Assembly (NCBI RefSeq): GCF_056712565.1
Contig: NZ_CM160072.1
Length of the DNA: 64,000 nt
Direction: 5' to 3' (one strand)
The translations under genes were made by a program, and so were the position numbers. Shown here piece by piece: positions 58,416 to 58,603 of the stretch; positions within the stretch are counted from its first letter, which is position 1, and each line of letters opens with the position of its first letter. The notes beneath the pieces are model-generated. The model saw only the letters and a program-made list of their open reading frames with translations, searched no databases and had not been told where the DNA came from.

Positions 58416-58427
58416 GGGCGGCGACCT
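58416..58427 (+). other. cosN cohesive-end sequence
   Basis: GGGCGGCGACCT is the 12-nt lambda cohesive end, in lambda-like context (ttacgGGGCGGCGACCTcgcggttttt). Confidence 0.85.
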
Positions 58428-58524
58428 CGCGGTTTTTCACTATTTATGAAAATTTTTCAGGGAAAATCGTGTCGGTACTTCTCGAATATAACTTTTTGTT
58501 TTTTTTAATATTGCATCCGTAAAG

Positions 58525-58575
58525 GTCCGACATGAAAGTGTCCGAAAATGCCTTTTTCTGGCGTTTTCATGTCGG
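58525..58575. repeat. cosB-like terminase-binding repeats
   Basis: GTCCGACATGAAA (58525-58537), GTGTCCGAAAATG (58538-58550), inverted TTTCATGTCGG (58565-58575), 30-80 nt upstream of Nu1. Confidence 0.6.
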
Positions 58576-58603
58576 GCCTTGTATTTGATAATGGGTTGTT
58601 TTC

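Follow-up and report, generated by a model that had tools for sequence, protein, structure and literature searches.

A cos site identical to that of phage 21 in a lambdoid prophage integrated beside icd

Which terminase would recognize a packaging site that carries the cohesive end of lambda next to terminase-binding repeats of a different kind? The question is raised by a cos site in a 64-kb stretch of DNA (64,000 nucleotides of contig NZ_CM160072.1, NCBI RefSeq assembly GCF_056712565.1; the whole stretch is hereafter called the window). An earlier note on this DNA had placed here a cohesive end with a flank matching lambda, followed by diverged repeats, and had proposed packaging specificity of the phage 21 type. 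We assign a probability of about 95% to the interpretation that this site, as judged from its sequence, is the start site of DNA packaging in a lambdoid prophage whose late module (lysis, packaging and head genes) is that of phage 21. The phage 21 cos has been under study since the 1980s; nothing about the feature found in the window is new.

The identity of the site is established by its agreement with phage 21. A sensitive DNA search of 58340-58660, which covered 50,697 phage records, aligned all 321 of 321 bases with positions 91-411 of the phage 21 record M81255.1 (100%). The genome of phage 21 is also deposited as X02501 and OL657228; both records have as their first base the counterpart of window position 58416, and their termini match the window. 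In a three-way alignment of the window, phage 21 and lambda, every column is the same in the window and in phage 21. Once OL657228 is joined end to end, the circularized sequence gives a gapless match of 8,652 bp to 55349-64000 with 99.08% identity. The 80 mismatches over these 8.6 kb are unevenly spread: 50 fall within the first 280 bp, in the holin gene, many of them 3 bases apart, and the 3,061 bp between 55631 and 58691 contain none. Because this match is gapless and colinear, a window coordinate is simply the phage 21 coordinate plus 58415. The subsites listed below are the annotations of the depositors of M81255, X02501 and OL657228 moved to the window by this relation, and all of them map without an indel.

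58385-58396: putative 'R4', overlapping cosQ (M81255 annotation)
58386-58392, plus strand: cosQ, GGGTCCT, the same as the annotated phage 21 cosQ (OL657228 42902-42908)
58411-58432: cosN, the nicking site, which holds the cohesive end
58416-58427, plus strand: 12-nt cohesive end GGGCGGCGACCT, annotated as such at bases 1-12 of OL657228
58445-58459, plus strand: I2, putative secondary IHF (integration host factor) site between cosN and R3 (M81255 196-210)
58465-58480, plus strand: R3 box of cosB, AATCGTGTCGGTACTT, a TerS binding site by annotation (M81255, OL657228)
58489-58501, minus strand: I1, IHF site lying between R3 and R2 (M81255, X02501, OL657228)
58522-58537, minus strand: R2 box of cosB, AAGGTCCGACATGAAA (reverse complement TTTCATGTCGGACCTT), inverted with respect to R3 and R1 (M81255, OL657228)
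58565-58581, plus strand: R1 box of cosB, TTTCATGTCGGGCCTTG (M81255, OL657228)
58587-58601, minus strand: I0, putative IHF site overlapping the ribosome-binding site of gene 1 (M81255 annotation)
58593-58596: ribosome-binding site of gene 1
58604-59152, plus strand: gene 1 (terS), encoding TerS, the small terminase subunit and Nu1 homologue that reads cosB (Pfam Phage_Nu1, E = 2e-81)
59124-61052, plus strand: gene 2 (terL), encoding TerL, the large terminase subunit and gpA homologue with nuclease and ATPase (Pfam GpA_ATPase and GpA_nuclease)

The window sequence contains every element of a complex lambda-like cos: a cohesive end within cosN, a 7-bp cosQ, the series R3-I1-R2-R1 with R2 inverted, and an IHF site. 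The 64-kb window has a single copy of the cohesive end GGGCGGCGACCT, also when one mismatch is allowed; a uniform model predicts 0.008 exact matches. This copy lies 177 bp upstream of the 182-codon open reading frame 58604-59152. The span given in the earlier note ended at 58580, which is the annotated end of cosB in M81255; cosQ, the subsite for packaging termination, lies outside that span. In lambda, R3 matters most among the three R boxes. In the window R3 occupies bp 50-65 counted from the end, just as it does in lambda (PMC9026076).

How well do the R boxes stand as repeats in their own right? R2 and R1 are inverted copies of each other with 15 of 16 positions identical (R1 taken as 58565-58580, TTTCATGTCGGGCCTT), and R3, in the same orientation as R1, is identical to each of them at 11 of 16. 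At that level 16-mer identity alone leaves R3 within the background, as the two strands of the window hold 43 16-mers with at least 11 of 16 matches to R1, 38 of which are 11/16 matches other than R3. The core motif C(A/G)TGTCGG is more discriminating: it occurs 7 times in 128 kb (both strands), and 3 of these occurrences fall within the 117-bp cosB (Poisson P ~7e-8). It is therefore the core motif, the position and the published annotation, and not 16-mer identity, that define R3 as a box. The diverged repeats reported earlier are thus real, and the proposed arrangement of two direct copies and one inverted copy describes R3 and R1 as against R2 correctly. The motif that the earlier note had quoted, GTCCGACATGAAA, is R2, its inverted partner is R1, and the true third box, R3, lay unnamed inside the described span. 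If GTGTCCGAAAATG (58538-58550, beside R2) had been counted as the direct copy, that part of the claim was spurious. As a candidate fourth R box or second direct copy this segment was rejected, since it reaches at most 8/16 in ungapped comparison with any R box in any register; it has only the hexamer GTCCGA in common with the boxes, and GTCCGA occurs 15 times in the window.

The IHF sites differ in their agreement with the consensus WATCAANNNNTTR. At one mismatch the consensus matches twice, at 58489-58501 and 58589-58601, with about 0.27 matches expected in a region of that size. The former is I1, which reads AAACAAAAAGTTA on the minus strand and is a candidate for IHF binding by sequence match; the latter, AAACAACCCATTA, falls within I0. 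A scan of I2 with the same consensus gave no match at one mismatch or fewer, which makes I2 a weak site.

The terminase genes next to the site are intact, and their products are essentially those of phage 21. TerS is identical to phage 21 gp1 at 180 of 182 residues, the changes being A30V and D67A (window 58692 and 58803), and its C-terminal half is that of phage 21 gp1. Residues 1-54 match the solved small-terminase DNA-binding domain PDB 7LWR_A at 53 of 54 positions. TerL is identical to phage 21 gp2 at 639 of 643 residues, with four changes confined to residues 307 and 312-314 (60029-60063). By sequence, the TerS C-terminus and the TerL N-terminus form a cognate pair of the phage 21 type. 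In the phage collection no full-length TerS match exceeds 180/182, and the TerS of phage PhiR63_2, like the other full-length matches there, has neither A30V nor D67A, of which the former adjoins the wing of the DNA-binding domain. The exact window protein is nevertheless present on at least 1000 contigs. The A30V/D67A form is therefore a common allele, and the idea of a rare TerS variant with altered specificity was rejected.

What does this combination imply for packaging? Lambda and phage 21 have the same cosQ and cosN, and yet each packages its own DNA more than 1000-fold better (PMC4669245). The work of the Feiss laboratory identifies bp 56 and 59 of R3 as important for recognition by TerS (PMC4669245, Fig. 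2 legend), and the same paper implicates these base pairs together with TerS residues 20 and 24 in recognition and in the discrimination between lambda and 21. Lambda R3 has T at bp 56 and C at bp 59, whereas the window has G at both; likewise, the recognition helix of the window TerS carries E20 and S24, as in phage 21 gp1, in place of the Q20 and E24 of lambda. The R boxes and the TerS recognition helix of the window are, as read from these bases and residues, those of phage 21 packaging specificity. The earlier proposal of phage-21-type specificity paired with a 21-like Nu1 is borne out by the 321-bp identity to the phage 21 cos, by the close match of TerS to gp1 and by the annotations of R3, I1, R2 and R1 in the phage 21 records.

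Studies of lambda and phage 21 suggest the likely sequence of events. TerS would bind the R boxes of cosB through a dimer of its winged helix-turn-helix domain, while IHF bound at I1 would bend the DNA such that R3 and R2 face each other. Docking of TerS would anchor TerL over cosN, where two nicks placed 12 bp apart would produce the end GGGCGGCGACCT. The upstream cosQ, together with cosN, would serve the cut that ends a packaging run. As cosQ and cosN are common to lambda, specificity would reside only in the pair formed by the R boxes and the TerS recognition helix, here the phage 21 pair. The order R3-I1-R2-R1 has been described for lambda, phi80, 21 and Gifsy-1, and the corresponding model has IHF bending the DNA at I1, a TerS dimer on R3 and R2, and TerL anchored to nick cosN (PMC9026076).

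No result of the analysis counts against the reading of the site as a phage 21 cos, and three limits temper it. First, the window stops at 64000, within the head genes, and the completeness of the prophage is not judgeable from the window alone. Second, TerS departs from that of phage 21 at the two residues given above. Third, the analysis covers how closely the sequences agree, where the sites lie and which way they face, and which residues are of the 21 type; that the site is bound, bent and nicked, and that it discriminates against the lambda terminase, is expected from published work on the phage 21 cos. Since that work used the identical sequence, the mechanism can be considered established for exactly this sequence.

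The first of these limits bears on the alternative that survives best, namely that the cos of phage 21 is intact but belongs to a defective prophage in which no packaging takes place, so that the site would be a relic or would be used only upon infection by a 21-specific helper phage. Of the late operon, just the initial 5.6 kb falls inside the window, which does not reach as far as the tail genes or the right attachment site. Cryptic prophages are numerous in E. coli, and the same cos is found in hundreds of genomes, often with several lambdoid prophages per genome. On the other side, the site lies in 3 kb without a single mismatch to functional phage 21, and the reading frames of terS, terL, W and the portal gene are intact. 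Moreover, the visible 24 kb of the prophage (40000-64000) are 99.9% identical to PhiR63_2, which has an identical cos and was deposited as a complete phage genome (host ECOR13), and phages of the PhiR series serve as plaque-forming temperate phages in PMC13190303. With its frames intact and a nearly identical phage on deposit as a complete genome, the prophage is unlikely to be defective.

The phage 21 cos is carried by a prophage that is not phage 21 throughout. It is inserted beside icd (window ~38300-40000), the attachment site of phage 21, and an icd fragment is present in its int-xis module. The sequence at the icd junction is shared at 100% identity by E. coli ATCC 11775, S88, APEC O1 and others. 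Elsewhere ATCC 11775 comes close to the window without being identical, with 12 mismatches over 6.3 kb and a TerS that differs from the one in the window. Homology to phage 21 begins only at 55349, at the holin gene, and continues onward from there; upstream of this point the DNA search shows no relationship between the prophage and phage 21. The early region is therefore not that of phage 21, which contributes the late module only. The mosaic joint with phage 21, at 55349-55630, falls where the holin gene S begins. In PhiR63_2 the genes follow the order int, N, cI, O, P, Q, porin gene, S, R, Rz, bor, TonB-like gene, Nu1, A, W, B. This phage appears to have an insertion of ~710 bp that is absent from the window at ~50900-51000, where the offset between the two sequences shifts from 38499 to 37789 (the junction is approximate); an IS200-family transposase gene is annotated in that part of PhiR63_2 (12461-12919).

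The lysis cassette is flanked by several accessory genes of the 'moron' type. Their coordinates are as follows, that of the porin gene being taken from the PhiR63_2 annotation by offset.

53680-54822, minus strand: OmpD/NmpC-like porin gene between Q and S
56552-56845, minus strand: Bor/Iss serum-resistance lipoprotein gene between Rz and cos
57326-57652, plus strand: gene of a lipoprotein with a TonB C-terminal domain, between Rz and cos

Phage 21 has tRNA genes where the window has the porin gene between Q and S, and a tRNA scan of the window found none. A further open reading frame of 84 codons, 58268-58522, spans cosQ, cosN, R3 and I1. PhiR63_2 and PhiR57_1 list it as a 'hypothetical protein', and the curated record of phage 21 has no such annotation; as a gene it is probably spurious.

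The segment from R2 to R1 forms a dyad that reaches into the spacer, with 27-nt arms (58522-58548 and 58554-58580) that are 81% complementary. RNA of 58522-58580 is predicted to fold at -37.7 kcal/mol (z = -4.8), and the homologous stretch of lambda folds at -37.0 kcal/mol (z = -4.4), though the R2-R1 spacer is just 48% identical between the two (13/27). A terminator-like pattern was flagged at 58557-58576. One could imagine a conserved RNA element or a terminator-like insulator directly upstream of the terminase genes, a notion that we consider improbable, still more so than the defective prophage. Were it true, the hairpin might block plus-strand transcripts of accessory genes, such as the TonB-like open reading frame, from entering the late operon of the repressed prophage.

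How widespread is the site? The 281 bp around cos find matches in 1,922 of 5,426 complete E. coli genomes; query coverage reaches at least 80% in 641 E. coli genomes, and 262 complete E. coli genome records contain the cos at 99% identity or more. The feature is thus very common, and both the phage 21 cos and its difference in specificity from lambda have already been mapped genetically and structurally, which leaves it little weight as a discovery. Its value lies mainly in annotation. The exact ends of the virion genome of the icd-integrated prophage would be marked at 58416/58427, and the prophage would fall in the 21 packaging-specificity group and hence would not cross-package with phages of lambda specificity. 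The identity of the cos also shows that the 'hypothetical protein' drawn across it in related GenBank records is probably not a gene.

The resemblance to lambda that raised the initial question is of a graded kind. In lambda, too, cos lies directly upstream of terS and terL. The two sequences have identical cosQ (7/7) and cosN (22/22, with 12/12 in the cohesive end), and the alignment contains an uninterrupted identical block at 58406-58432, in agreement with the match of the cohesive end and its flank described earlier. Beyond this block, identity falls to 30/37 in the spacer between cosN and R3 and 11/13 in the I1 core, and within the boxes it amounts to 11/16 in R3 (69%), 9/16 in R2 (56%) and 8/17 in R1 (47%). 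The order, orientation and spacing of R3, I1, R2 and R1 are the same, with a single 1-bp indel over ~190 bp, and because there is just this one indel in the region the sites of the window and lambda can be treated as positionally homologous. The cosB aligns position for position with the lambda R3, R2 and R1 sites; alignment free of divergence would have refuted the earlier note, but divergence is present and is concentrated in the R boxes themselves. The lambda core CGTTTCC is replaced by C(A/G)TGTCGG, and neither CGTTTCC nor its complement GGAAACG has a match on the two strands of 58416-58603.

The lambda-like cosQ, cosN and general spacing might prompt the view that the site has lambda specificity and that its cosB differs from that of lambda by neutral drift. 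This is extremely improbable, given that the R boxes have lost the lambda core and are altered at both specificity positions, and that TerS is only 53% identical to Nu1 and differs from it at residues 20 and 24. Published crosses with the same sequence point the same way, with cross-packaging of ~1e-4: in Table 6 of PMC4669245, as we interpret its layout, 21-specific DNA gives a yield of 1.24 when the helper is 21-specific and of 1e-4 when it is lambda-specific.

A cos of a phage-inducible chromosomal island (PICI), or of another satellite that hijacks the terminase of a helper, can be dismissed as no more credible, for although PICI cos sites likewise have lambda-like cosQ and cosN, they carry no repeated R sequences and have rpp downstream where terS would stand (PMC9026076), whereas the window has three R boxes and an IHF site followed by full-length TerS and TerL, inside a complete lambdoid gene order (int to N, cI, O, P, Q, S, R, Rz, bor, cos, terminase, portal). 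The simple cosB of the N15 type and the PICI cos have a lambda-like cosQ and cosN and an R3 equivalent ~50 bp from the end, as does the window (PMC4669245, PMC9026076). They have, however, a single R site without I1, R2 and R1, whereas the window possesses the full complex cosB.
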